From Thermoanaerobaculia bacterium (GTDB taxonomy: Bacteria; Acidobacteriota; Thermoanaerobaculia; Gp7-AA8): DNA of 64,000 nt. Made by a program: the position numbers and the translations under genes. This document shows, piece after piece, positions 2,900 through 63,665 of this stretch (positions are counted from its first letter, which is position 1; every line of letters starts with the position of its first letter). The stretch is from contig DATLXH010000109.1 of assembly GCA_035576005.1 (NCBI GenBank), forward strand, positions 33,058-97,057. The letters are read 5' to 3'. Below the pieces are notes generated by a model that had not been told where the DNA came from, did not search any database, and worked only from the letters and a program-made list of their open reading frames with translations.

Positions 2900-4990
2900 A
2901 TGAACAGGTTGAATCGATCGGTCGCTTTGAGTGCGCTGCTTCTCATGGGCGGACTGCCTCTTTTCGCTCAGAAAGAACCGATCTCCCACGAAACACTCTG
3001 GCTCATGAAGCGGGTCGGCGCTCCTGCCGTCAGTCCTGACGGTAAGTGGGTCGTGTTCTTACTTACCTCTCCGTCGTACGAAGAGAAGGAACAAAGTGCC
3101 GACCTTTGGATCGTCCCCGCGGATCGGAGCGCAGAACCGCGACGCCTTACATCAACGAAGGCAACCGAGAACGACGTTGCCTGGAGCAATGACAGCCGCA
3201 GACTCGCCTTCGGAACCAAACGGGAAGGAGACGAGGAGAATCAGATTTACGTCATCGACATCGCCGGGGGTGAAGCGACGCGAGTCACCTCGCTCACTAC
3301 CGGAGCAAGGATGCCAGTCTGGAGTCCCGACAACAATGCGATCGCGTTCATGAGCGGAGTCTTTTTCGGGGCCGCCGATGAAGAAGCCAACAAGAAAACT
3401 GCTTCGGAGCGAAAGAGTCAGAAATTTAAAGTACGTGTTTACGACACATTCCCGATCCGCCGCTGGGACAAGTGGCTCGACGACGCGCAATCGCATGTTT
3501 TCGTTCAGAGACTCGACGCTGGCGCGAAGGCAAAGGACCTCCTCGCGGGAACGCTTCTGGTGAGCGGAGCAGGTTTCGGTGGCCGCGGCAGCGAGGGATC
3601 GGGCGATACTCTTGACCTGGCCTGGACGCCTGACGGAAAGTCGATTGTCTTCACGGCAACGAGTAACCGGAATACCTCGGCGTTCGCATTCACCAACACG
3701 CATCTTTACGAGGTCGCGGTCGCCGGCGGCGAGCCGAAACAGCTAACGAGCGGGAACGACAGCTTCAGCCGTCCAAAGTTCAGCTCTGACGGAAAGAAGC
3801 TCTACTACCTGATCTCGTCAGACTGGGGCAAAGTCTACGCCCTCGACAGGCTCGGGATGACAGCATGGGCATCCGGAGCCCTACGGTTCATCACGATCAC
3901 GAAGGATTTCGATCGATCGATTGGAAGCTGGGATCTGAGCGGAGACGGCCGCACGATCTATCTGACGGCTGAGCACGCAGGCACTGAGCGGATCTTTTCG
4001 ATGCCGGCGGACGGCGGTGAAGTCAAAGAGCTCGTCGCCCCTCCAACTGGTGTCTACACCTCCCTAACCGTCGCCGACCGCTCCCGGACCCCCGTTCTCA
4101 TCGCGAGCTGGGGAAGCTCGATCCAGCCGGCCGAGATTGTGTCGATCGATCCAGTTTCCAGGACCCACAAGCTCCTCACGAGCTTCAACGTCGCCAGCGC
4201 TGCGAAGATCGACTGGAGCGCTCCGCGGCACTTCTGGTTCACAAGCTCGCGCGGCAAGAAAATTCACAACATGATCGTGTTGCCTTCCGGGTTCGACCCA
4301 GCCAGAAAGTATCCGCTTTTCGTTCTCATTCATGGCGGCGCAGCCAACATGTGGCGCGATCAGATCTCCCTTCGATGGAATTACCATCTCCTTGTGAAGC
4401 CGGGCTACGTCCTGCTGCTGACGAACTACACAGGGTCCACCGGGTTCGGTGAGAAGTTCGCCCAGGAGATCGGAGGCGATCCTCTGGCCGGACCGGCGAC
4501 CGAGATCAACGAGGCGGCCGATGAAGCGATCAAGCAGTTTTCATTTATCGACGGATCGAGACAGGCGGCGGGTGGCGCAAGCTACGGCGGGCATCTCACG
4601 AACTGGCTCCTTGCCACCACGACCCGCTACAAGTGTCTCATCAGTCACGCCGGCCTGATGAACCTCGAGGCCCAGTGGGGAACGAGCGACGGAATCTACC
4701 ATCGCGAGATCGTGGCGGGTGGGCCGGTCTGGGAGCAGGGGAAAGTCTGGCGCGAACAGAACCCGATTCGCCGGGCGGCCAGCTTCAAGACGCCGATCCT
4801 CTTCTCAATTGGTGAGAACGACTTTCGCGTTCCCCTCAACAACACCCTCGAAGCATGGAGCGCCGTGCAGAGAATGCAGGTCCCGAGTCGCCTCCTTGTC
4901 TGGCCCGACGAAAATCACTGGATCCTCAAGGGAGAAAACTCCAGGGTCTTTTACCGCGAGGTCCACAACTGGCTGAGCAAGTGGCTCTGA
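2900..4990 (+). CDS. S9-family serine peptidase (dipeptidyl-aminopeptidase/acylaminoacyl-peptidase type) with an N-terminal beta-propeller and a signal peptide
   Basis: After the internal start MNRLNRSVALSALLLMGGLPLFA the sequence shows WD/PD-repeat-like segments. The catalytic GGASYGGHLTNWL (GxSxGG) motif is followed by D and H regions. The track ORF runs 2753..4990, but the first 49 codons derive from the repeat element. Confidence 0.85.
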   Translation: MNRLNRSVALSALLLMGGLPLFAQKEPISHETLWLMKRVGAPAVSPDGKWVVFLLTSPSYEEKEQSADLWIVPADRSAEPRRLTSTKATENDVAWSNDSRRLAFGTKREGDEENQIYVIDIAGGEATRVTSLTTGARMPVWSPDNNAIAFMSGVFFGAADEEANKKTASERKSQKFKVRVYDTFPIRRWDKWLDDAQSHVFVQRLDAGAKAKDLLAGTLLVSGAGFGGRGSEGSGDTLDLAWTPDGKSIVFTATSNRNTSAFAFTNTHLYEVAVAGGEPKQLTSGNDSFSRPKFSSDGKKLYYLISSDWGKVYALDRLGMTAWASGALRFITITKDFDRSIGSWDLSGDGRTIYLTAEHAGTERIFSMPADGGEVKELVAPPTGVYTSLTVADRSRTPVLIASWGSSIQPAEIVSIDPVSRTHKLLTSFNVASAAKIDWSAPRHFWFTSSRGKKIHNMIVLPSGFDPARKYPLFVLIHGGAANMWRDQISLRWNYHLLVKPGYVLLLTNYTGSTGFGEKFAQEIGGDPLAGPATEINEAADEAIKQFSFIDGSRQAAGGASYGGHLTNWLLATTTRYKCLISHAGLMNLEAQWGTSDGIYHREIVAGGPVWEQGKVWREQNPIRRAASFKTPILFSIGENDFRVPLNNTLEAWSAVQRMQVPSRLLVWPDENHWILKGENSRVFYREVHNWLSKWL

Positions 4991-5112
4991 TTCAGACAAA
5001 CACTCCCCGACGTCCGATCACGAACCGTTAACGTTCGAGTGGCGCATTCGTTGTCGCCGGACTCCTCGACACGAAGGTGCAGCAGTCGGTCAGATCACTC
5101 CAGTTCGATCTT

Positions 5113-5295
5113 TAGCCCGCATTTCTCACACTCCTTCGCGGCGAGGCGGCGGAGAGTGGCCTGGATGCGAGGCGCACGGCGATTTTGCGACGAGGCATAG
5201 TCGGCACTATGTCAAGGAGCGAAATTGCCGTGCAACGAAGCAGACAGGCCGCTATCCGTCGTCTCGCGGCGAAGGAGTGTGAGAAATGCAGGCTA
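5113..5295. mobile_element. MITE, copy 1 (~180 bp), with 18-bp terminal inverted repeats AGCCCGCATTTCTCACAC / GTGTGAGAAATGCAGGCT and flanking TA/TA
   Basis: It is ~90% identical to the copy at 43320-43503. The TA dinucleotide on both sides is the target duplication typical of IS630/Tc1-mariner MITEs. There is no internal ORF. Confidence 0.7.
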
Positions 5296-5296
5296 A

Positions 5297-7520
5297 CGGC
5301 ATGGTTCGGTCCCGGCATTCCGCCACGACCCTGGCGCCCGACCCGGGATTCCGCCCGAAATCGGCTGCAACAGCAACCGCGAAGCTGTCCGCAGAAGAAC
5401 TCCCCCATGCAGTTCGCTTGCGCGACCCCGTCTCGGTCAGTCAGAATGGCGCGCACACACTCACAAAAAGCGCTACCTCTTCGGAGCGTTCGAGCTCGAC
5501 GCCAATCTATATGAGCTCCGAGAAGGCACCCGGATTGTCCGCGTGGAGCCGCGCGTACTGGACGTTCTGTTTTACCTCGTGCGAAACCGCGACAGGGTCG
5601 TCTCGAAAGACGAGCTTCTCGAGAAGGTCTGGAAGACGACATTCATCGGCGAATCCGCGCTGAGCCGCTCCATCATGCAGGCGCGAAAGGCGATTGCGTC
5701 CGAAGAAGGAAGTGAGGAGGCGATCAAAACCATCCATCGCCGCGGCTATCGCTTCGTCGCCCCGACGGTCGAGGATCATGGGACGGAGCCAGGGCAGGAC
5801 CCGGCGACTGAGGATCCGGATCCGGTTTCGGCACCAGTTGCGGCCAGCGTTTCGGCGACTACCACACCGACGACGCTCATTTCGGAGAGTCTGGTCGTAG
5901 ATTCATCCCTTGTTAGTGGAGAGGCCGTCCGAGCGACCGGCCAATCGCACCAGGTCATCCGAGTTCGGAGGACGCTGATATTCGTGGCAGCGGCCATTGT
6001 CGTCATGTCCGCGCTTGCACTGCATCGTTCTCATGGCACTGTTCCCGTCTCATCTTCCAGAGGTGTGAGGCTGGCGATCCTTCCTGTTTCCCCCTCCGTC
6101 GCGGAGGATGCGGAGAGCCTGCTCCTCGCAGAGATGGTGAGTGATCTCCTGTCGATCAGACTGGCAGCCGTTCCTGGTCTGATTGTTCGTACACCCGGTG
6201 AGAGCGAGAGGTTATCGACGTCGATGAGCAGCCTCGCCGCGTTAGCACAGCGCGCCGGTGTGACCTTCGTACTCTCCGGAAGTTTGCGTCCGGTACGAGA
6301 GGCCGGCAAAGCTCGAATCGATCTGGCGCTGCACGAGTTTGGAATCAACGGTCGCACCGAAACCACATCTCTCGGTCGCTACGATATCCCTTTCGTCCGC
6401 AACCGGTTTGATGTGCAGCAGCTGCGCACGATCAATGACGGCATCGTTCAGCGAGTGATACGAGAGCTCGTTCCACTCATCCACGCCGGCCCCGCCGCCG
6501 GGGATTCGCCACGCGATCCGCACGCGTACCGACTGTATCTGCTCGGACGGGACCGACTGAGTGAGGAAAAATGTGACGGGGGGGGGCGCCCTCCAGCTGC
6601 TCGAGCGCTCGCTCGAGCTCGATCCTGGCTTCGCTCCGGCGTGGCAGGCTTTTGCACTCGCACACTACGGCCTCGCCTCCTCGTGTGGAGAGGATGCGAC
6701 TCACTACGAAAAAGCGCTGAACGGGATCAGGCGTGCCGTGAAGCTGCATCCGGATATGCCAAGCGCCATGGCGCTGGAAGCAACGGTGCTGGCCGAGAGC
6801 GGGCGCATCGAAGAGGCCTACGAATCTCTGATACGAAGGAAACGAGATGGTGCCGTGGCATGCGACATCGACTACGCGGCGTCAACCGTCCTGTCGTATG
6901 CGGGCTATCTTGATCCGGCGCGCAGGAAGCTCGACAGCGTTCTGAGGGCCGACCCCCAGTACCTCGCGATCGGTGGCTGGACGCCTAGTATTCATCTCTA
7001 TGAATCGGAGCCCGACCGATTTTTACGCTATCTCCCGGCGGCCGAGACCGCGTCGTTCCGCTATTACCGCGGGTACGCGCAGCTGCTTCAGGGAAAGATA
7101 CCTGCAGCACGTGAGAGCCTCGGGCCCGCGTTTCGTCTCAACCCCCACGACGTCTTTGCGAGGCTCAGTGCGGCGCTGCTCGATACCGTGGAGGGCCGAC
7201 CGGTAGAAGCCCTCGAAGTACTGCGCGGTCTCGAACGGCAACGCAGGGCTGTGGGCTCCACGGATGGTGCTCTCACTTACAAGCTCGCTCAGCTCTACGA
7301 GCGGGCGGGAGACAGCGACTCCGCTCTCGAGAGCCTTGGCCGCGCCGTCGACCAGGGATTCTTCTGTACGCCATGCTTCGCCGGCGATCCGCTCTGGAAT
7401 TCCGTCCGGTCGAAAGCAAAGTTTACCGACGCGTTCCGGCGCGCTGAATCGAGGCATCGCGCTTTCGGGAAGCGTTTCGGGTTTCTCGCGAGCTCCGGGA
7501 GCGGACAAGGGGCGCAGTGA
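5297..7520 (+). pseudogene. CadC/OmpR-type winged-helix regulator with a TM segment and a TPR domain. It appears disrupted, with no start codon after the MITE and a frameshift at a 9-G tract.
   Basis: The wHTH-coding frame is open from 5297, immediately after the MITE. It encodes ...YLFGAFELDANLYELREGTRIVRVEPRVLDVLFYLVRNRDRVVSKDELLEKVW...HRRGYRFVAP, but no ATG/GTG/TTG occurs before the GTG at 5543. ORF 5543..6913 then carries a TM helix (LIFVAAAIVVMSALAL). It shifts frame at GGGGGGGGG (6578-6586) into ORF 6561..7520, which is TPR-like. Deleting one G fuses the two reading frames. Confidence 0.55.
6578..6586 (+). repeat. homopolymeric G9 tract inside the regulator coding sequence (frameshift site)
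   Basis: Sequence is gacgggggggggcgcc. The ORFs upstream and downstream are offset by +1. Confidence 0.8.
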
Positions 7521-16525: not shown

Positions 16526-16984
16526 GATTGTAGTTCTGATGGCAGTGGATGAGCGGCCGACCGTCGATCGCCTCCACTTTGCGGGCAGCGGAGGCCGACC
16601 GCGCGGGCCGAGAAGATTAGATCGTCTCGACTGCCTTCTTCATCGCGGCGTGCGCGACAACCATGGTCCTCGGTCATGGAGGAGTGATGCATCGCGACGC
16701 GAGCGAGTGTCGCGACCCTAATGGCGAAAAAGTACGGGAGCCGCTGACGGATGCTGCGTGTGCGAAGGTCCATTTGCCAAATTCTCCCTGAAGACGAATG
16801 GCTGATGACTCGTCGTGGGAGCGACGTGAATCAAGCGTACGCTGTTTGGAAACTGAGGGGTGAAAATCACATGGATCCCTTCCGCTATCAAGTTCGGCGC
16901 CCCCCTCCAGCTCGCATTTTCACCGACCTTTGTCGTTAGACGGCGCTGCCCGACGGCAGGACGAAGTAGACCCCGCCAGAACTC

Positions 16985-17160
16985 CACTTCGCGGTTCACC
17001 CAGATCCAGAGTGTCGTGAGCAGCGAGTCTCACAGCTCCTCGGACTTACGTCCTTTGCAGTCCTCTCGAATGCGTGAGGTTTCAACCGCGGGGGGCACTC
17101 GGCAATCGATTCAGACACTAAAAACAGGTCGAGCCGAGGCTCGCCCTTTCTGGTGAAACT
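16985..17160. repeat. ~160-nt duplicated block, copy 1; ends in a terminator-like hairpin GGTCGAGCCGAGGCTCGCCC
   Basis: It shares CCAGATCCAGAG(T/C)GTCGTG(T)GAGCAGCGAGTCTCACAGCTC and ...CGAGCCGAGGCTCGCCCTTTCTGGTGAA..TGAAATC with 18010-18135. It lies in a ~680-nt ORF-less region. Confidence 0.55.
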
Positions 17161-17208
17161 TCGTTGAAATCCCAATGCTCCTGACGCCAGTGATATGACG
17201 GGCGCTCC

Positions 17209-17929: not shown

Positions 17930-18020
17930 TTCGCGAGACTTTCACGCCCCTCACCCTGCTCCGCTTCGCTCGCTTCCCTCTCCCCGCCGGGGAGAGGGAG
18001 ACGCCGCTTCGCTGCTCAGC
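17930..18020. repeat. REP-like element, half copy B
   Basis: GAGACTTTCACGCCCCTCACCCTGCTCCGCTTCGCTCGCTTCCCTCTCCCCGCCGGGGAGAGGGAGACGCCGCTTCGC matches the B-half of copies A and C. Confidence 0.65.
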
Positions 18021-18135
18021 CCCAGATCCAGAGCGTCGTGTGAGCAGCGAGTCTCACAGCTCGTCGCACTCAAAGTCAGTCACAAAAAAAGGGCGAGCCG
18101 AGGCTCGCCCTTTCTGGTGAAGTGTCGCTGAAATC
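18010..18135. repeat. ~160-nt duplicated block, copy 2 (partner of 16985-17160)
   Basis: See copy 1. This copy contains the rpoC terminator hairpin. Confidence 0.55.
18084..18119 (-). terminator. rho-independent terminator downstream of rpoC
   Basis: The minus-strand transcript reads GGGCGAGCC-UCGG-GGCUCGCCC followed by UUUUUUU. It lies 20 nt after the rpoC stop. Confidence 0.75.
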
Positions 18136-21100
18136 TTACTGCTCGTCGTCGATGTCCGCCATGGCGATGGCTTCTTCGTCTTCCTGACGCAATGCTTCTT
18201 CGAGATCCATCGGTTTCGGCTCGTCTTTCTCGAGGAAGACATCCCGATACGTCGGCATGCCGGTTCCGGCGGGGATGAGACGTCCGACAATGACGTTCTC
18301 CTTGAGCCCACGCAGGTAGTCGACACGGCCGGCAATCGCGGCCTCTGTGAGAACCCTCGTCGTCTCCTGGAACGATGCTGCGGAGATGAAGGAATCGGTC
18401 GAGAGCGATGCTTTGGTGATCCCGAGCAGAAGCGGAGTACCGTCTGCCGGCTCGCCGCCACGCGCCATGACTTTCTCGTTCTCTTCGAGGAAGCGGAAAC
18501 GATCCACCTGCTCGTCGATGAGGAAGTCCGTGTCGCCGACGCGAGTCACACGGACTGATCGCATCATCTGACGTGTGATGACTTCGATGTGCTTGTCGTT
18601 GATGGCAACCGACTGTGAACGGTAAACCTCCTGGATCTTGTCGACCAGGTAGCGCTGCAGCTCTTTGACTCCGAGAACTGCCAGAACGTCGTGAGGATCG
18701 ATCGGACCGTCGATGAGAGGATCACCGGCGCGGACCTGCTCGCCTTCCTGAACGTTGACGTGTGTATGGCGCGGAACTGAGTACTCGTGACGCGACCCTT
18801 CGTCAGTCTCAACGATGACGCGACGCATACCCTTGACGACGGTTCCATGATGAATCGTTCCGTCGACCTCGGTGATGACTGCTTTCTCCCGCGGATGACG
18901 TGCCTCGAAGAGCTCTACGACGCGAGGCAGACCGCCGGTGATGTCCTTCGTCTTGGTCTGTGCGCGAGGAATCTTGGCGAGAATGTCGCCGGGATAAACT
19001 TCCTGACCATTGCTGACCATGAGGTGAGCGCCGGTCGGCAGGAGGTATTTTTTCTCCTCGCCTTTCTTCGACTTGACTGTGACCTGCGGCGTCCGCTTCT
19101 CGCTCGCAGCTGACTCGACGATGACCATCTGCGTGAGTCCGGTCACCTTGTCTGTCTCTTCGCGGATGTTCTCGCCTTCGACGATATCCTTGAAGACGAT
19201 CTTTCCGCCGAGCTCAGTGAGAATCGCTGAGGTGAATGGATCCCATTCGACCAGCGGCTGACCCGGAACGACGTGCTCGCCTTCGTGGACCTTGAGGGTC
19301 GAGCCGTAAACCACTGCGTAACGCTCTTTCTCGCGGCCTGTTGTGACGGGGGCCTCGACCGGACGCGTGTCCTTCTTACCCTTGACCACGGTGACGACCT
19401 TGTCATCCATGATCAGAAGCTTTCCGTTACGGTTGATGACGACGAGATCGCCATTCTTGTTCGTGACGGTGGCAACGTTGAGGAACGCCACACGACCCGG
19501 GTTCGTTGCTTCGTGTTTCGACTGCTCGGAAACACGTGAGGCCGTACCACCGACGTGGAATGTACGCATCGTGAGCTGCGTGCCGGGCTCTCCGATCGAC
19601 TCAGCCGCGATGACACCGACTGCTTCGCCGATCTCGACGAGACGACCGCTCGCCAGATTGCGTCCGTAGCAGCGACGGCAGACTCCGCGACGTGTTTCAC
19701 ATGTGAGCACCGAGCGGATTTTTGCGCGCTCGATTCCAGCTTCCTGAATCGAGTTTGCGAGATCGTCGGTAATCTCATCATTCTGACTGACCAGCTTCTC
19801 TCCGTCGATCGGATCCCAGATCTCTTCCTGGGCAATGCGTCCGACGATGCGGTCGCGAAGAGGCTCGAGAATGTCTCCCCCCTCCATGATCGCGCTGACG
19901 GTAATGCCTTCGAACGTCTGGCAGTCCTGCTCGGTGACGATAACGTCCTGAGCGACGTCGACGAGACGACGTGTGAGGTATCCCGAGTCAGCCGTTTTCA
20001 AGGCTGTATCGGCGAGTCCCTTACGAGCGCCGTGCGTCGAGATGAAGTACTGAAGCACCGAAAGACCTTCACGGAAGTTGGCCGTGATCGGTGTCTCGAT
20101 GACTTCGCCGGAGGGCTTCGACATCAGTCCCCGCATACCAGCGAGCTGACGCACCTGCTCTTTCGAGCCTCGGGCGCCTGAGTCCGCCATCATGAAGATG
20201 GGGTTGAACTCGTGACGCTCCTCTTCAGCCTTTCTCATGTCGGAGAACATCTCATCGGAAACCTGCTCGGTCGCACGGTGCCAGATGTCGATGATCTTGT
20301 TGTGGCGCTCACCGTGAGTGATCGCGCCGTCGAGACGCTGGCGCTCGACTTCGAGCACGCCGATGCGCGCCTTGTCGACGATCTCACCCTTGCGGGCCGG
20401 GATGACCATGTCTTCGAGAGCGATCGAAACGCCGGCTTTCGTTGCGTAGAGGAACCCGACCTCTTTGATTTCGTCGAGCATCTTGACTGTGAGGTCGTTT
20501 CCGAAATTGAGGAAGGCAAAGTTGACCAGCTCGCCGAGGCCTTTCTTCTTGAGGAGACCATTGATGAAAGGGATCTCATCGGGAAGATGCATGTTGAAGA
20601 TGACGCGACCGACTGTGGTCTCGACCAGCCTCTTGTCAACGTCCTGAATCTCGGCGTGAGTGATGTCCTGATCGTTGAAGTGTGTCGTCAGATCGATGAG
20701 CTTGCCTGTGACCCGCATCTTGATCGGGGTCAGCAACTCGACCTCGCCAGCCTGAAGCGCGAGGACGGCCTCATCATAACTACCGAAGATCTTCCCTTCA
20801 CCCTTCGCTCCGCCCTTGGCCTTCGTCAGGTAATAGCAGCCGAGAACGAGATCCTGTGAAGGGACCGCCAGAGGCTTCCCGTTCGCAGGAGAAAGAATGT
20901 TGTTCGAGGCAAGCATGAGGACCTGCGACTCGACCTGAGCTTTCGGTGACAGAGGAACGTGAACGGCCATCTGGTCACCGTCGAAGTCTGCGTTAAACGC
21001 CGTGCAGACCAGAGGATGAATCTTGATCGCCTTCCCTTCGACGAGAACCGGCTCGAAAGCCTGGATGCCGAGGCGGTGAAGCGTTGGGGCGCGGTTCAAC

Positions 21101-26780: not shown

Positions 26781-26820
26781 ACTTCCGGAAGGACGACGAA
26801 TCGGAGCAAATGCACGATGT

Positions 26821-26845
26821 GGCCGGACACGCCAATGTCCGGCGC
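26821..26845. repeat. GGCCGGACA(C/T)(G/T)CCAATGTCCGGCG repeat, copy 2
   Basis: Single palindromic unit in the rplL-rpoB intergenic region. Confidence 0.65.
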
Positions 26846-27015
26846 CCTCACGCGCATCAAGTCAGATCGTTCGAAGCTTCTCTGGGGTGTAGTGCCCTGT
26901 CAGGGAATCCGACGATGCGAGGTTCGCCGCAGGCAACGCGTCGAAATGATTCGCGGGTTTTGAGTCAATGTGGAGAAGGCCGCTCCCCCCCTCTCCTGAC
27001 TCGCAAATGTAAAAG

Positions 27016-27122
27016 CTGAATTCAGAACGCAGAACGCAGAAGGAAGAATTGAGAAAAAAGAAGGGGGACCGCTGCCTGCCTTCTTCGTTCTTCATTCTGC
27101 GTTCTACATTCTGCGTTCATCC
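27016..27122 (-). promoter_or_regulatory. long imperfect hairpin built from CAGAACG heptad repeats, in the rplL-rpoB spacer. Candidate RNA processing or attenuation structure.
   Basis: GAATTCAGAACGCAGAACGCAGAAGGAAGAA ... TTCTTCGTTCTTCATTCTGCGTTCTACATTCTGCGTTC, with ~30-nt complementary arms. Confidence 0.45.
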
Positions 27123-27126
27123 TTCA

Positions 27127-27169
27127 CAACAAAACCGAATTCCGGGCAGGTCCAACCCGCCCGGAATTC
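27127..27169 (-). terminator. attenuator / rho-independent terminator immediately after rplL
   Basis: The minus transcript reads GAAUUCCGGGC-GGGUUGGACCU-GCCCGGAAUUC then GGUUUUGUUGUG. It lies 7 nt after the rplL stop. Confidence 0.7.
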
Positions 27170-30429: not shown

Positions 30430-30506
30430 TGGCAGGCCAGGAGGGACTCGAACCCCCAACAAGCGGTTTTGGAGACCGCCGCTCTACCAATTGGAGCTAC
30501 TGGCCT
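30430..30506 (-). tRNA. tRNA-Trp (anticodon CCA)
   Basis: Minus-strand sequence is AGGCCAGUAGCUCCAAUUGGUAGAGCGGCGGUCUCCAAAACCGC...GGGUUCGAGUCCCUCCUGGCCUGCCA. It has a cloverleaf with T-loop GTTCGAGTC and an encoded CCA. This is the canonical position between rpmG and secE. Confidence 0.85.
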
Positions 30507-30609
30507 AAATTGCTGATTTTATGAATTCAGAGCTGGACATCGGAAGCGAGGGCTCGCGAAAAGAGCCGCAAACGGGCTACAGGTCGCGTGCCAACCGTTT
30601 TATTCCCAA

Positions 30610-30768
30610 CTATTTCGCTTCACGATGGACCGTGTGCCGGCGATCGTGACGGCAGAATTTCTTGAGCTCGATTTTCTCGGTCGTCGTCTTTTTGTTCTTG
30701 GTCGTCGAGTAATTCCGACGTTTGCACTCGGTGCACTGAAGGGAAATGATTTCGCGGACGGCTGCCAT
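30610..30768 (-). CDS. rpmG: 50S ribosomal protein L33
   Basis: Reverse-complement translation gives [52 protein letters not shown] (52 aa). It is too short for the ORF track. Confidence 0.85.
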
Positions 30769-30860
30769 GGTGATCTCCGTGTTGTAGATTCTGACTGCAG
30801 TGCAGCCGAAAAGTTTCTGGTTTCATCCCGAGCGAGGGATAACACCATCATATGAATTTC

Positions 30861-30935
30861 TGGAGCCCTCTACGAGAGTTGAACTCGTGACCCCGTCCTT
30901 ACCAAGGACGTGCTCTACCCCTGAGCTAAGAGGGC
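30861..30935 (-). tRNA. tRNA-Thr (anticodon GGT)
   Basis: Minus strand GCCCUCUUAGCUCAGGGGUAGAGCACGUCCUUGGUAAGGACGGGGUCACGAGUUCAACUCUCGUAGAGGGCUCCA. Confidence 0.85.
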
Positions 30936-30966
30936 TGATCTCATTAAATGCAGAATTTGAATGCGT

Positions 30967-31041
30967 TGGAGCGGGAGACGGGGATCGAACCCGCGACCAA
31001 CAGCTTGGAAGGCTGTGACTCTACCACTGAGTTACTCCCGC
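30967..31041 (-). tRNA. tRNA-Gly (anticodon TCC)
   Basis: Minus strand GCGGGAGUAACUCAGUGGUAGAGUCACAGCCUUCCAAGCUGUUGGUCGCGGGUUCGAUCCCCGUCUCCCGCUCCA. Confidence 0.85.
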
Positions 31042-31105
31042 GTTTTTGAGCTGACGCACCGACCCTTTCGTTTCGTCGAGTCGTCAGGTCGGTAAGGTTT
31101 ACGAT

Positions 31106-31192
31106 TGGTGGAGAGAGGAGGATTCGAACCTCCGAAGGGTGAAACCCGGCAGATTTACAGTCTGCTGCCTTTGGCCGCTCAGCAATCTCTCC
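31106..31192 (-). tRNA. tRNA-Tyr (anticodon GTA), long variable arm
   Basis: Minus strand GGAGAGAUUGCUGAGCGGCCAAAGGCAGCAGACUGUAAAUCUGCCGGGUUUCACCCUUCGGAGGUUCGAAUCCUCCUCUCUCCACCA. Confidence 0.85.
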
Positions 31193-31213
31193 TCATTTCT
31201 CGCAAGCGTGGCT

Positions 31214-31289
31214 TGGAGCTGGCGATGGGACTCGAACCCGCGACCTGCTGATTACAAATCAGCTGCTCTGCCAACTGAGCTACGCCAGC
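31214..31289 (-). tRNA. tRNA-Thr (anticodon TGT)
   Basis: Minus strand GCUGGCGUAGCUCAGUUGGCAGAGCAGCUGAUUUGUAAUCAGCAGGUCGCGGGUUCGAGUCCCAUCGCCAGCUCCA. Confidence 0.85.
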
Positions 31290-36399: not shown

Positions 36400-36640
36400 A
36401 GAATCTCGTCGCGACCTGCTGCGCGCGACAGATGCGAGCGAGCCGCGAAGCGGCGTTCCCTCTCCCCGGCGGGGAGAGGGAAGCGAGCGAAGCGAAGCAG
36501 GGAGAGGGGCGTGAAAGTCTGGCGATCCATTAGAAAGTCGCAGTCTCCGTATCTCTCGCGGCCCCTCTCCCGGTCGCTGGCGCGACCACCCTCTCCCCGC
36601 CAGGGAGAGGGTTTCGCGCGTCCCTCCGGGTCTGTCGCGC
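36400..36640. repeat. REP-like element, copy C (inverted relative to copy A)
   Basis: Palindromes CCCTCTCCCCGGCGGGGAGAGGG at ~36457-36480 and CCCTCTCCCCGCCAGGGAGAGGG at ~36589-36611 flank a GCGAAGCGAAGCAGGGAGAGGGGCGTGAAAGTC core. It lies in the gltX-ispF spacer. Confidence 0.7.
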
Positions 36641-37824: not shown

Positions 37825-37848
37825 TCGGATTGCTGGGCTTAAATTTGT

Positions 37849-37925
37849 GGCCGGACGTCCCAATGTCCGGCGTCGGGAGTGGCCCGGGACAGGTTGAAGG
37901 CGCCGGACATTGGGATGTCCGGCCA
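37849..37925. repeat. GGCCGGAC(G/A)T(C/T)CCAATGTCCGGCG repeat, copy 3 (two inverted units)
   Basis: Units at 37849-37872 and 37900-37925, in the frr-ispD spacer. Confidence 0.7.
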
Positions 37926-41335: not shown

Positions 41336-41360
41336 TGGCCGGACATTCCAATGTCGGCGG
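41336..41360. repeat. GGCCGGACATTCCAATGTCGGCGG repeat, copy 4
   Basis: Single unit in the rpsB upstream region. Confidence 0.6.
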
Positions 41361-41446
41361 CTTTGGTGATGCTGATGCGTAACGTGAATCGTTGTCCTGC
41401 CAGTTAGCGGACCCATTCCGCTCGGAAACCGTGCGACTGAAGAACG

Positions 41447-41470
41447 AGACAGACAAGAGTGTCTGTCCTA
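41447..41470. repeat. GACAGACAAGAGTGTCTGTCCTACA hairpin-repeat family, copy 1 (single arm)
   Basis: Stem GACAGACA/TGTCTGTC with loop AGAG. Related to the palindromes at 52328 and 63553. Confidence 0.6.
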
Positions 41471-41503
41471 CAAACAAAAGGACAGGAGCTCCCGCCCCTG
41501 TCC
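41471..41503 (-). terminator. rho-independent terminator after rplM-rpsI
   Basis: Minus transcript GGACAGGGGCGGGAGCUCCUGUCC followed by UUUUGUUUGU. It lies ~40 nt after the rpsI stop. Confidence 0.65.
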
Positions 41504-42700: not shown

Positions 42701-42925
42701 ATGATCCGCACTCAAATCAGTTTTACGGAAGAAGAGTTCGAGGCTGCGCAGCGTGAAGCCGGCGAGCTCGGCATCTCGCTGGCGGAGTTGTTGCGCCGGG
42801 CGGTGCGTCCCCTGTTGCCTTCCGATCCGACCAAACCCTGGATGCGTTACGCCGGAATGATTGAATCGGGCGACTCCAGATCCAGCCAATCGATCGACAG
42901 CGTCGTTTATGACCGCAAAGATTGA
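42701..42925 (+). CDS. ribbon-helix-helix antitoxin (VapB/CopG-like)
   Basis: MIRTQISFTEEEFEAAQREAGELGISLAELLRRAV. This is an RHH fold pattern. A 12-bp perfect palindrome GATGATATCATC lies ~25 nt upstream. The gene overlaps the downstream PIN gene. Confidence 0.7.
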   Translation: MIRTQISFTEEEFEAAQREAGELGISLAELLRRAVRPLLPSDPTKPWMRYAGMIESGDSRSSQSIDSVVYDRKD

Positions 42926-43322
42926 AGCGTACGTCGACACCTCCGCCCTGATTGCCTTCGCCGACCGCTCAGACAGCTTTCATCATCTTTTCCGGCGAGC
43001 GTTCGCCGACCCCCCTCACTTAGTCTCAACAACGCTGGTGGTCGCCGAGGGTCATGGATGGTTTCTGAGGCGATTCGATTCCTACCGTGCTCTCGAGTTC
43101 ATCGCCATGATCCAGGCGATGACGCCCCTCGTCATAGTCTCAGTCGGTACCAGGGAGTGGACTGCCGGCACAGAGGTACTCAGGAAGTATTCCGATCAGG
43201 CTCTAACACTGACCGATGCGGTCGGGCTTCACCTCATGAAGTCCCGTCGCATCAAAACATGCTGGTCCACCGACTATCATCTCGGTTTGACCGGCGTGCC
43301 ATTGTTGATTCACCAACTCTAG
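42909..43322 (+). CDS. vapC: PIN-domain toxin (VapC family)
   Basis: MTAKIEAYVDTSALIAFADRSD...LTDAVGLHLM...WSTDYH, with PIN acidic residues. The track ORF starts 16 codons earlier, inside the antitoxin gene. Confidence 0.75.
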   Translation: MTAKIEAYVDTSALIAFADRSDSFHHLFRRAFADPPHLVSTTLVVAEGHGWFLRRFDSYRALEFIAMIQAMTPLVIVSVGTREWTAGTEVLRKYSDQALTLTDAVGLHLMKSRRIKTCWSTDYHLGLTGVPLLIHQL

Positions 43323-43503
43323 CCCGCATTTCTCACAGACCTTTGTCGTGAGACGGCGGAGAGGGGCTTGGATGCGAGGCGCACGGCGATTTTGCGACGA
43401 AGGCATAGTCGACACTATGTCAAGGAGCGAAATTGCCGTGTAACGAAGCAGACAGGCCGCTATCCGTCGTCTCGCGGCGGAGGTCTGTGAGAAATGCGGG
43501 CTA
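43320..43503. mobile_element. MITE, copy 2, with perfect 21-bp TIRs AGCCCGCATTTCTCACAGACC and a TA target duplication
   Basis: It begins at TA|GCCCGC and ends at GCGGGC|TA. Internal sequence is ~90% identical to copy 1. It lies between vapC and ubiE. Confidence 0.75.
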
Positions 43504-43535
43504 GCCGGAAGCGACGATCGATTCTGTGCAAGAGT

Positions 43536-50500: not shown

Positions 50501-50591
50501 TGCGAGGACTCAGGATTGCACAGGGTCAACCCAACGGCCTGAACTTAACCCGCATTTCCCACAGATATTGGGCCGCGGCAGGGCCACCGTC

Positions 50592-51155
50592 TCAGGCCAG
50601 CAGAAAATCAACCTGTTCGATTCTCGCGACCAATGCCAGCTCCTCGACAGTCTGCGAGGACAAAGATGTGTCGATCTCGTCATCGAGGCTGATCCAGCTT
50701 CGACATCCGGCATACGCGCTACTGTTCACGACCTCAACAGGCGACTGCAGCCGCCAGACCCGCAACGCCAGCAACTGTAGCTTCTGGTCAGCGCGAAATC
50801 GAAAACGCTCGTCGAGCGTCTCCCGGGTGAAGATGAACAGCGGCTCGATCCGATCGAGAGCGGCCAGGTCTGAGATCGTCCAACTCCGAACGACGTCCGC
50901 CCAGGATGAAATCGTCACAATTGCTGGCTCGGACTCCCGGTCGGTCTGAGCGAAATGATCTCGACCTTCCGGTTTGAACTGATTCTCCTTCTGGTGCAGG
51001 TAGGTCGGAAAAAGGTAAAACTGCTCGGCTTCGATGGCGAAGCGCGAGTCCGCTATGCCCCCTTTTCTCAGAATGCAGATCTGCTCCCCGGTTTGAAGAG
51101 CTGAGATCACAGAGGCCCACTCTTTCAACGCCGTGTGGTTCGGAAGCTTCTTCAT
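50592..51155 (-). CDS. hypothetical protein
   Basis: 188 aa from the internal Met MKKLPNHTALKEW.... The start overlaps the queD stop. No motif recognised. Confidence 0.45.
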   Translation of the reverse strand: MKKLPNHTALKEWASVISALQTGEQICILRKGGIADSRFAIEAEQFYLFPTYLHQKENQFKPEGRDHFAQTDRESEPAIVTISSWADVVRSWTISDLAALDRIEPLFIFTRETLDERFRFRADQKLQLLALRVWRLQSPVEVVNSSAYAGCRSWISLDDEIDTSLSSQTVEELALVARIEQVDFLLA

Positions 51156-52314: not shown

Positions 52315-52327
52315 AACGCGAGCTGCG

Positions 52328-52390
52328 CGACAAAGACAAGAGTGTCTGTCCTACATGCGCGTCTGGGACAGACACTCTTGTCTGTCACGC
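52328..52390. repeat. GACA(A)AGACAAGAGTGTCTGTCCTACA nested palindrome, copy 2
   Basis: Two inverted arms around CATGCGCG, each arm itself a hairpin. It lies just after the 51628 gene stop. Confidence 0.65.
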
Positions 52391-52514
52391 GGACCGTCAA
52401 TTGAACGTCGTCGTTTGCACAAGCTGCCTCGTATCAACCAACCGATGCGCTTCGCACCCATGCCGTCATCTTCACGACGAAGGGCTGTGAGAAACAGCCG
52501 CTAGCCCGTGTCGC

Positions 52515-63399: not shown

Positions 63400-63550
63400 G
63401 AAGGACGCGTCTCTCACGGACCTTCAACGTGAAAGATGCGGAGAGGGGCCCGGATGCGAGACGCACGATGGTTCTGCGACGAAGGTGTAGTCACCACCAT
63501 GTCGAGGAGCGAGAGCAGTTGGGCAACGAAACGTCCAAACGAAAATGTCG
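63400..63550. mobile_element. degenerate third MITE copy (~75% identical internal segment, TIRs decayed)
   Basis: GCGTCTCTCACGGACC...GGATGCGAGACGCACGATGGTTCTGCGACGAAGGTGTAGTCACCACCATGTCGAGGAGCGAG aligns to the internal region of copies 1 and 2. Confidence 0.5.
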
Positions 63551-63552
63551 CC

Positions 63553-63612
63553 GTGACAGACAGGAGTGTCTGTCCTACACGAGCATGTAGGACAGACACT
63601 CCTGTCTGTCAC
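63553..63612. repeat. perfect 27-bp-arm nested palindrome GTGACAGACAGGAGTGTCTGTCCTACA-cgagca-TGTAGGACAGACACTCCTGTCTGTCAC, copy 3 of the family
   Basis: Each arm is itself a hairpin (GACAGACA/TGTCTGTC). It ends ~54 nt upstream of the clpX-like ATG. Confidence 0.75.
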
Positions 63613-63665
63613 GCGCGGGAAGATTCCGCTTCAGAAATGAGCGCTATACTCACAGGCTCAGGACG

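Follow-up and report, generated by a model that had tools for sequence, protein, structure and literature searches.

Hairpin-forming MITEs of a Thermoanaerobaculia bacterium carry termini matching those of IS1380-family insertion sequences

Copies, remnants and insertion sites

Two intact copies of a repeat of about 180 bp were observed in the window (the whole 64,000-nucleotide stretch of DNA that was analysed), copy 1 flanked by genes for an S9 peptidase and a winged-helix regulator and copy 2 between a PIN (vapC) gene and ubiE. The two copies were about 90% identical, with the repeat comparison giving 88% over 84 nt (D7) and 94% over 103 nt (D3). A first-pass annotation of this DNA had reported both repeats and the same gene context, and the exact limits of the elements are now given in Table 1. 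To locate further copies, we searched the window with the 19-mer of the terminus at up to 3 mismatches and obtained five matches compared with 0.01 expected, four of which were the ends of the intact elements and the fifth a solo site (50546-50564). A second search used an nhmmer profile built from 35 family members, which recovered both intact copies and also a diverged third copy, previously placed near 63400-63550. The match to the third copy covered profile positions 3-123, and since it stops at position 123 the right arm is missing. The left terminus of this copy has decayed (about 10 of the 13 alignable terminal-repeat positions, 3-15, are kept), the left arm and apex are retained, and the right arm is lost at the start of an unrelated 70-nt palindromic repeat (63547-63616).

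Several smaller remnants were also observed. An arm fragment on the minus strand was detected with the profile and escaped the 19-mer search at up to 3 mismatches; a further copy of the 70-nt palindromic repeat (52325-52394) lies some 50 nt away. Weak profile matches were found at 50549-50649 (E 0.039) and 16911-16965 (E 0.038). The solo terminus may be the end of a very decayed half element of about 100 nt that reaches to 50649. Both the solo terminus and the arm fragment had been noticed earlier, at about 50547-50575 and 52482-52503, respectively. When the remnant at 16911-16945, absent from that earlier list, was aligned by eye with the copy 2 left arm, about 32 of 36 positions agreed and a single 1-nt gap was needed.

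Table 1. Intact elements, degenerate copies and their flanking tetranucleotides in the window.
Feature	Position	Strand	Observation
Copy 1, left flanking 4-mer TTAG	5112-5115	+	Only the central TA in common with the right 4-mer; atypical mismatched pair
MITE copy 1, 177 nt	5116-5292	+	Hairpin; 19-mer matches; profile E 1e-45
Copy 1, terminal repeats	5116-5130 and 5278-5292		CCCGCATTTCTCACA and TGTGAGAAATGCAGG; 1 mismatch
Copy 1, right flanking 4-mer CTAA	5293-5296	+	TAA 5294-5296 in frame with the downstream regulator frame
Left-arm remnant, copy-2 sublineage	16911-16945	+	Preceded by CCAG; profile E 0.038 and comparison by eye
Copy 2, left target-site duplication CTAG	43319-43322	+	Contains the TAG stop (43320-43322) of the PIN/vapC ORF 42861-43322
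MITE copy 2, 178 nt	43323-43500	+	Profile E 9.5e-51; missing at the orthologous L243 site
Copy 2, terminal repeats	43323-43337 and 43486-43500		Both perfect
Copy 2, right target-site duplication CTAG	43501-43504	+
Solo terminus TAACCCGCATTTCCCACAG	50546-50564	+	Preceded by TTAA; 2 mismatches; 0.01 chance matches expected
Degenerate arm fragment	52446-52497	-	Profile positions 7-61, E 6.6e-4
Copy 3, old and degenerate	63404 to about 63535	+	Repeat comparison D1, 83%; profile match 63406-63529, E 2e-17

All ORFs of at least 60 aa that overlap the two window copies cross the element borders and run mostly in flanking DNA, and the window elements showed no similarity to an IS1380 transposase, which agrees with the earlier statement that the repeats lack coding capacity. 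By tblastn, no IS1380 transposase was encoded anywhere in the 64-kb window.

The winged-helix/TPR regulator downstream of copy 1 (5294-7520) appears disrupted. Its conserved N-terminal motif RYLFGAFELD is encoded at 5468-5497, and no in-frame ATG, GTG or TTG was observed from the TAA at 5294 to a GTG at 5543. An ATG at 5301 lies in a different frame, an A5 run is present at 5465-5469, and the TPR part shifts to a different frame (ORF 6561-7520). Homologues of the regulator are single proteins of 595-630 aa, and the region is either a pseudogene or a consensus error of the MAG. An empty site for copy 1 was sought through these homologues, the best of which was 42% identical, and no orthologue was found among them.

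Inspection of related strains for empty sites had been proposed in the first-pass annotation, and for copy 2 such a site was found on JGI contig Ga0136612_10012183 (L243). In a search with ubiE, a 100% identical protein named in NCBI as Thermoanaerobaculia identified the MAG of origin, and the orthologue on L243 was 89% identical. The antitoxin-PIN-ubiE order on this contig is the same, and the PIN-ubiE gap is just 33 nt and contains no element. The junction on L243 reads ...caccaactcTGAGccggaagc... and that in the window ...caccaactcTAG[178-nt element]CTAGccggaagc..., with flanks that are 92% and 84% identical. Judged from this alignment, L243 is the orthologous empty site for copy 2, and the insertion is located exactly at the vapC stop codon. 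The stop codon TAG of vapC is within the duplicated CTAG of copy 2, and the L243 allele has TGA at the same place. The empty-site allele thus reads CTGAG, not CTAG, and a CTAG is presumed to have occupied the copy 2 site before insertion.

Copies of the element were abundant in metagenomes. A search pattern of 24 specified bases, taken from the hairpin apex, retrieved at least 120 stretches of this subfamily, with at least 36 complete copies (176-179 nt for those listed) and at least 97 cut by contig ends. At least 8 full and at least 22 partial copies were 93% or more identical to copy 2. The empty site of copy 2 and the many near-identical copies at other metagenome loci bear out the view that the element was recently active, and the repeats, being non-coding, miniature, bounded by inverted repeats and recently active, were rightly described as MITEs.

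Since most copies were cut by contig ends, assemblies break at this repeat, and the element is a systematic assembly breakpoint in these samples. The ends of short-read contigs (L119 and many of Ga0136612) fall at 14-45 nt from the apex of the MITE hairpin. The only contig of the assembly collection found to encode the folD of the window, Logan contig SRR7741809_35048 (L119), starts inside copy 2, and when synteny between the window and the metagenome loci was examined for more empty sites this was the only contig to overlap. One metagenome copy (L210, 16-192) combined a left arm of an L133-like sublineage with a right arm of an L136-like sublineage and had 52 Watson-Crick pairs, the fewest of all copies. 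Recombination between sublineages could have produced this copy, or else it is a chimera of the assembly at a contig end.

Target duplication and transposase family

The repeats had been assigned to an IS630/Tc1-mariner-like family of MITEs that duplicate a TA dinucleotide. Both window copies do have TA directly outside G/CCCGC... at each end, and the flanks of copy 1 have only this TA in common. RUP and Correia elements have TA-type targets. Both are among the bacterial repeat elements listed as known (PMC3184786). To determine the length of the duplication, we took 43 paired elements and compared the tetranucleotide to the left of CCCGC... with that to the right of ...GCGGG. The left and right 4-mers were identical in 25 of the 43 pairs, with CTAG as the consensus, followed by TTAG, CTAA and TTAA (YTAR). 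Left and right agreed significantly at position 1 (Fisher p = 2e-5) and position 4 (p = 0.0017) as expected of a direct repeat, whereas the rival model in which position 4 is the first base of the inverted repeat gave no association (p = 0.6). Non-palindromic 4-mers formed 8 direct-repeat pairs (TTAG/TTAG, CTAA/CTAA and similar) and 2 inverted ones, and an independent metagenome set contained CTAG/CTAG ten times and TTAG/TTAG six times among the matches listed. Pairs such as TTAG/TTAG, CTAA/CTAA and ATAT/ATAT are inexplicable by duplication of TA.

The target duplication is 4 bp long with the consensus CTAG (YTAR), and TA is merely its centre. The TA reported on both sides of both copies is therefore real as the centre of a 4-bp site, and it was mistaken for the duplication itself. 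With its TTAG/CTAA flanks, copy 1 is one of only 2 'inverted' cases in 17 informative pairs, and its mismatched flanks may stem from decay or from recombination of one copy with another. Insertion at stop codons is frequent, as the target includes TAG or TAA. At 40 of 220 element ends the TAG or TAA within the duplicated site terminated an ORF of 150 or more codons, compared with 22 and 13 in the two control frames.

Full-length elements with the same ends were sought by scanning for the 16-mer terminus GCCYGCATTTCYCACA, with one genome per species, which gave at least 118 loci. By our own arithmetic about 1,000 chance matches to a 16-mer are expected over the whole collection, so only loci with two inverted matches were trusted. 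Among the matches listed, the paired loci formed two size classes, one of about 50-300 bp and the other of 1.65-1.72 kb. The long elements L056 (1686 bp), L018 (1719 bp), L046, L072 and L093 each contained one ORF of about 460-490 aa, and the L056 protein matched PF13701 (E 3.6e-149) and the NF033539 model 'IS1380 family transposase' (E 8.2e-120). L056 and L121 carried the 15-mer CCCGCATTTCTCACA unchanged at each end, and L018, L046, L072, L093 and L120 had at most one mismatch to it at either end. Within the matches listed, full-length elements with these termini were observed in Acidobacteriota, Proteobacteria and annotated plasmids.

A tblastn search of plasmids with the transposase returned 728 records. 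L120 and L121 (Bradyrhizobium pCB82_1 and Pseudomonas putida pKF715A) are annotated in RefSeq as IS1380-family transposases and end in this same 15-mer; the copy in S. fredii NGR234 (L122) is unannotated and its termini are degenerate. All three were flanked by CTAG/CTAG. Each of the 12 transposase-bearing loci with these termini among the matches listed matched IS1380-family transposases by tblastn, the query transposase being one classed as IS1380-family by NCBIfam. The transposases of L056 and L018 have identical termini at just 50% protein identity, so the terminus is strongly conserved within the clade.

None of the matches listed was an IS630-family element with these termini. The full-length elements listed that do have them encode IS1380-family DDE transposases, and the assignment to IS630/Tc1-mariner does not hold. 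The first-pass annotation had regarded the lack of a matching transposase terminus as evidence against its reading. For IS630 no such terminus was found among the matches listed, and a matching transposase does exist, in another family. The window elements resemble IS630/Tc1-mariner MITEs in having TA at both element borders and differ from them in that this TA is the core of a 4-bp duplication and in having the termini of IS1380-family elements. On the family features tested, the IS630/Tc1-mariner reading is already refuted, and we regard it as extremely improbable.

The length of the inverted repeat was also revised. Repeats of 18-21 bp had been described, and while inverted repeats are real, the whole element is palindromic and the terminus common to the family is only the 15 bp of CCCGCATTTCTCACA. 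The G that precedes this sequence belongs to the flanking 4-mer and not to the terminus. The interior of the MITE was similar to the sampled full-length ISs only over about 16-18 bp at the termini. Derivation of the MITE interior from a parent IS by internal deletion was considered and rejected, as no similarity past the termini was found in the sampled ISs. Many MITEs with the same termini carry unrelated interiors. In MFD01721.bin.1.215, a related Acidobacteriota MAG, a full-length IS (L018) occurs alongside a copy of the MITE (L009), which at 79% identity is the closest genome copy among the matches listed.

Some further features of the full-length elements were observed. At L018 the IS (1122-2840) lies 166 nt from a 113-nt MITE (3006-3118) with the same termini. 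The IS at L056 (2568-4253) is located between two ORFs that we take to resemble parts of a Tn3-family transposase gene. In L046, L056, L072, L120, L121 and L122 a conserved subterminal motif, RGGTGCAYCGGGCC, is present at one end of the IS, about 22-36 nt in from the end, and the MITEs are without it. This motif may be an extra transposase or regulatory site found only in autonomous elements.

Hairpin folding and candidate host functions

Both intact copies are end-to-end imperfect palindromes predicted to fold into a single hairpin, with minimum free energies of -143.9 kcal/mol (z -16.3) for copy 1 and -141.3 kcal/mol (z -17.6) for copy 2. Covariation was measured in the subfamily alignment A2, which contains 35 sequences. 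The consensus hairpin has 59 pairs, with 95% of cells paired, and 41 of the 59 pairs had changed on both sides, compared with 28.9 +/- 2.2 in shuffled alignments. The covariation score was 0.451, compared with 0.159 in shuffles and at most 0.099 with slid partners. Because covariation exceeds both the shuffled and the slid controls, the arms co-evolve, with compensatory changes keeping the end-to-end hairpin intact.

Stable folding was not restricted to this subfamily. Twenty-five MITEs with the same termini, nearly all outside the subfamily alignments, had z-scores of -3 to -18 relative to shuffled sequences. Many of these are end-to-end hairpins, and for six the interior was directly shown to be unrelated. 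Since stable folding is common to unrelated MITEs with the same termini, we take it to be a generic property and not that of a specific RNA gene. The hairpin is probably linked to how such elements arise, transpose or are tolerated. Folding could help to bring the ends together, could result from fold-back genesis, or could make the element tolerable to its host.

A different explanation would give the element first and foremost a host function, as a structured RNA or as a DNA hairpin that binds protein; it might stabilise mRNA, provide an RNase III site or serve as a cassette for translation initiation. The hairpin and apex would then be conserved for that function, and transposition would merely spread the element. 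The strong covariation of the arms is consistent with this, as is the near-invariant apex (GACGAAGGCATAGT..ACTATGTCGAGGAG) in sublineages from Acidobacteriota and a gammaproteobacterial MAG, although the apex was also the metagenome search pattern and its invariance there is partly by construction. The strong folding of same-terminus MITEs with mostly non-homologous interiors argues instead for a generic constraint. Also in favour of a host function, both intact copies are co-oriented with the flanking genes, and mismatches in the window sublineage are biased, with about 10 G.T and 1 A.C. Across the predicted structure, G.T mismatches numbered 186 and A.C 12. When pairing was defined without RNA energy rules the counts were 209 and 81, and almost all of the excess came from the near-identical window sublineage. 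Other sublineages had no G.T excess, and the bias was therefore rejected as general evidence of strand-specific selection on an RNA.

The terminus also contains GGAG and, 8-9 nt further on, an outward-reading ATG whose frame is that of the downstream ORFs (ubiE and ORF 5286). Over 265 element ends, ORFs of at least 50, 100 and 150 codons numbered 103, 54 and 31 in the ATG frame and 90, 47 and 35 in the +1 control frame, respectively. The ATG frame is thus no more open than the control, and we rejected the idea of the MITE as a portable translation start, the in-frame ATG being a coincidence. No sigma-70-like promoter and no intrinsic-terminator-like site was found in or at the elements, and a promoter or terminator function was likewise rejected for want of consensus sites. 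These results do not support the influence on neighbouring genes that the first-pass annotation had suggested. Only tRNAs passed the gathering score in an Rfam search of the window, and at relaxed thresholds copy 2 matched only a plant miRNA precursor model, spuriously (36 bits compared with a gathering score of 190). We consider a primary host function of the element very unlikely.

A narrower proposal is that selection acts on the hairpin itself, as a structured RNA or protein-binding module, on the basis of the near-invariant apex, conserved asymmetric internal loops and co-varying arms. This is doubtful in our view, if less so than a primary host function. If it were true, the module could be an mRNA stabiliser or processing site, or a docking site for the transposase or a host factor that boosts mobility, and IS1380 transposases would be the means by which a functional structured element spreads among soil Acidobacteriota and passes horizontally into Gammaproteobacteria.

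Being a long palindrome, the element could also be a REP/BIME-like or IS200/IS605-type palindrome mobilised as single-stranded DNA by a Y1 (HUH) transposase, and the window is indeed rich in other short palindromic repeats. Elements mobilised by Y1 transposases are not known to make a target duplication or to carry terminal inverted repeats. The elements described here have 15-bp terminal inverted repeats identical to those of an IS family with a DDE transposase, together with a 4-bp direct duplication and a clean empty site, and mobilisation by a Y1 transposase is the least probable of the explanations considered, with next to no chance of being correct.

Proposed mobilisation, related elements and other repeats

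We are highly confident that the repeats are non-autonomous MITEs and that their transposition signals are limited to the 15-bp termini, CCCGCATTTCTCACA, of a single clade within the IS1380 family. In the proposed mechanism, an IS1380-family DDE transposase would be made by a full-length element elsewhere in the cell and would bind both termini. The element of about 177 bp would then be inserted into a 4-bp YTAR site, preferably CTAG, and the site would be duplicated. We infer both the mobilisation in trans in this Thermoanaerobaculia host and the chemistry of the reaction.

The window elements resemble IS1380-family ISs (IS1380, IS1247, ISEcp1; NF033539, PF13701) in their termini, which match those of the sampled members and start with CC, and in a short target duplication, 4 bp here, with CTAG flanking the annotated plasmid copies. 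For IS1247 a 5-bp duplication and inverted repeats of 16/13 bp have been described (PMC3281130). As short duplications of 4-5 bp are reported for the IS1380 family, the 4-bp duplication fits IS1380 and not IS630/Tc1-mariner. Unlike these ISs, the window elements are 177-178 nt long, non-coding and palindromic from end to end, and have only about 16 bp in common with them.

Other bacterial MITEs, including Correia, RUP, ERIC, Nezha, Chunjie and MITEPye1, are similarly small and non-coding, with termini that match ISs, flanking direct repeats, very stable predicted hairpins, empty and filled sites and an intergenic location (features compared from PMC3184786 and PMC11578231). The parent of the present elements is of the IS1380 family, in contrast to IS1182 for MITEPye1 and an ISNpu3-like element for Nezha, and the CTAG/YTAR target is specific to the IS1380-terminus group.

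The elements also share features with piggyBac, in that both have a 4-bp, TA-centred palindromic target. As in the present elements, piggyBac ends begin with CCC. There are eukaryotic MITE derivatives of piggyBac, such as MER75 and MER85, and its excision is seamless and proceeds via hairpin intermediates. The tetranucleotide duplicated by piggyBac is TTAA (PMC7351741), whereas the present elements use CTAG (YTAR) and reside in a bacterium. IS1380 transposases are prokaryotic relatives of piggyBac and form an outgroup to it (PMC10813416). We regard the resemblance as a suggestive analogy, and not as evidence on the reaction chemistry.

The literature searched contained no description of an IS1380-derived MITE or of the terminus CCCGCATTTCTCACA. 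The element is thus of an ordinary kind, with a family assignment for which we found no description in that literature, and the present evidence does not reveal a new kind of biological system. Correcting the family is of practical use, as pipelines and repeat libraries would otherwise misfile repeats that are apparently abundant in the scanned metagenome assemblies. The repeat also accounts for assembly breaks in these Thermoanaerobaculia and other Acidobacteriota populations. The 15-bp terminus and CTAG target provide a sequence-defined, testable substrate for IS1380-family transposases, bacterial relatives of piggyBac whose mechanism has been little studied. Given the preference for CTAG/YTAR, stop codons are natural places for insertion, a simple rule for where the elements accumulate.

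Several other repeats were observed in the window. A second dispersed family of about 90-170 nt, with copies 94-98% similar, is present at 2465-2646, 17931-18018 and 36457-36620. Its copies have CCCTCTCCCCGCCGGGGAGAGGG palindromes at the core and occur in both orientations between genes (D2, D6, I1, I2, I8, I10), and they may represent another MITE- or REP-like element. A REP-like short hairpin repeat, TGGCCGGACATTCCAATGTCCGGCG, was found at 2756-2785, 26820-26850, 37848-37872 with 37901-37925, and 41336-41360, in one case as an inverted pair 28 nt apart (D5, I13, I16, I24). The near-perfect palindromic repeat of 60-70 nt (CGTGACAGACAGGAGTGTCTGTCCTACA...TGTAGGACAGACACTCCTGTCTGTCACG) occurs as a half copy at 41445-41472 and at 52325-52394 and 63547-63616. 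Two of its copies adjoin MITE remnants, namely copy 3 and the fragment at 52446-52497, which suggests nested insertion or a common hotspot.

A segment of about 120-160 nt is duplicated about 1 kb apart (16999-17180 and 18021-18144; 85-95% similar; D9, D20) and includes a GC-rich hairpin followed by TTT (GGGCGAGCCGAGGCTCGCCCTTT), terminator-like in appearance. At 27008-27128 a 48-nt inverted repeat, 77% complementary with a 25-nt spacer, is made up of short repeats of the CAGAACG/GAAGAA type (I9, I11). Five tRNA genes are clustered on the minus strand at 30433-31289.
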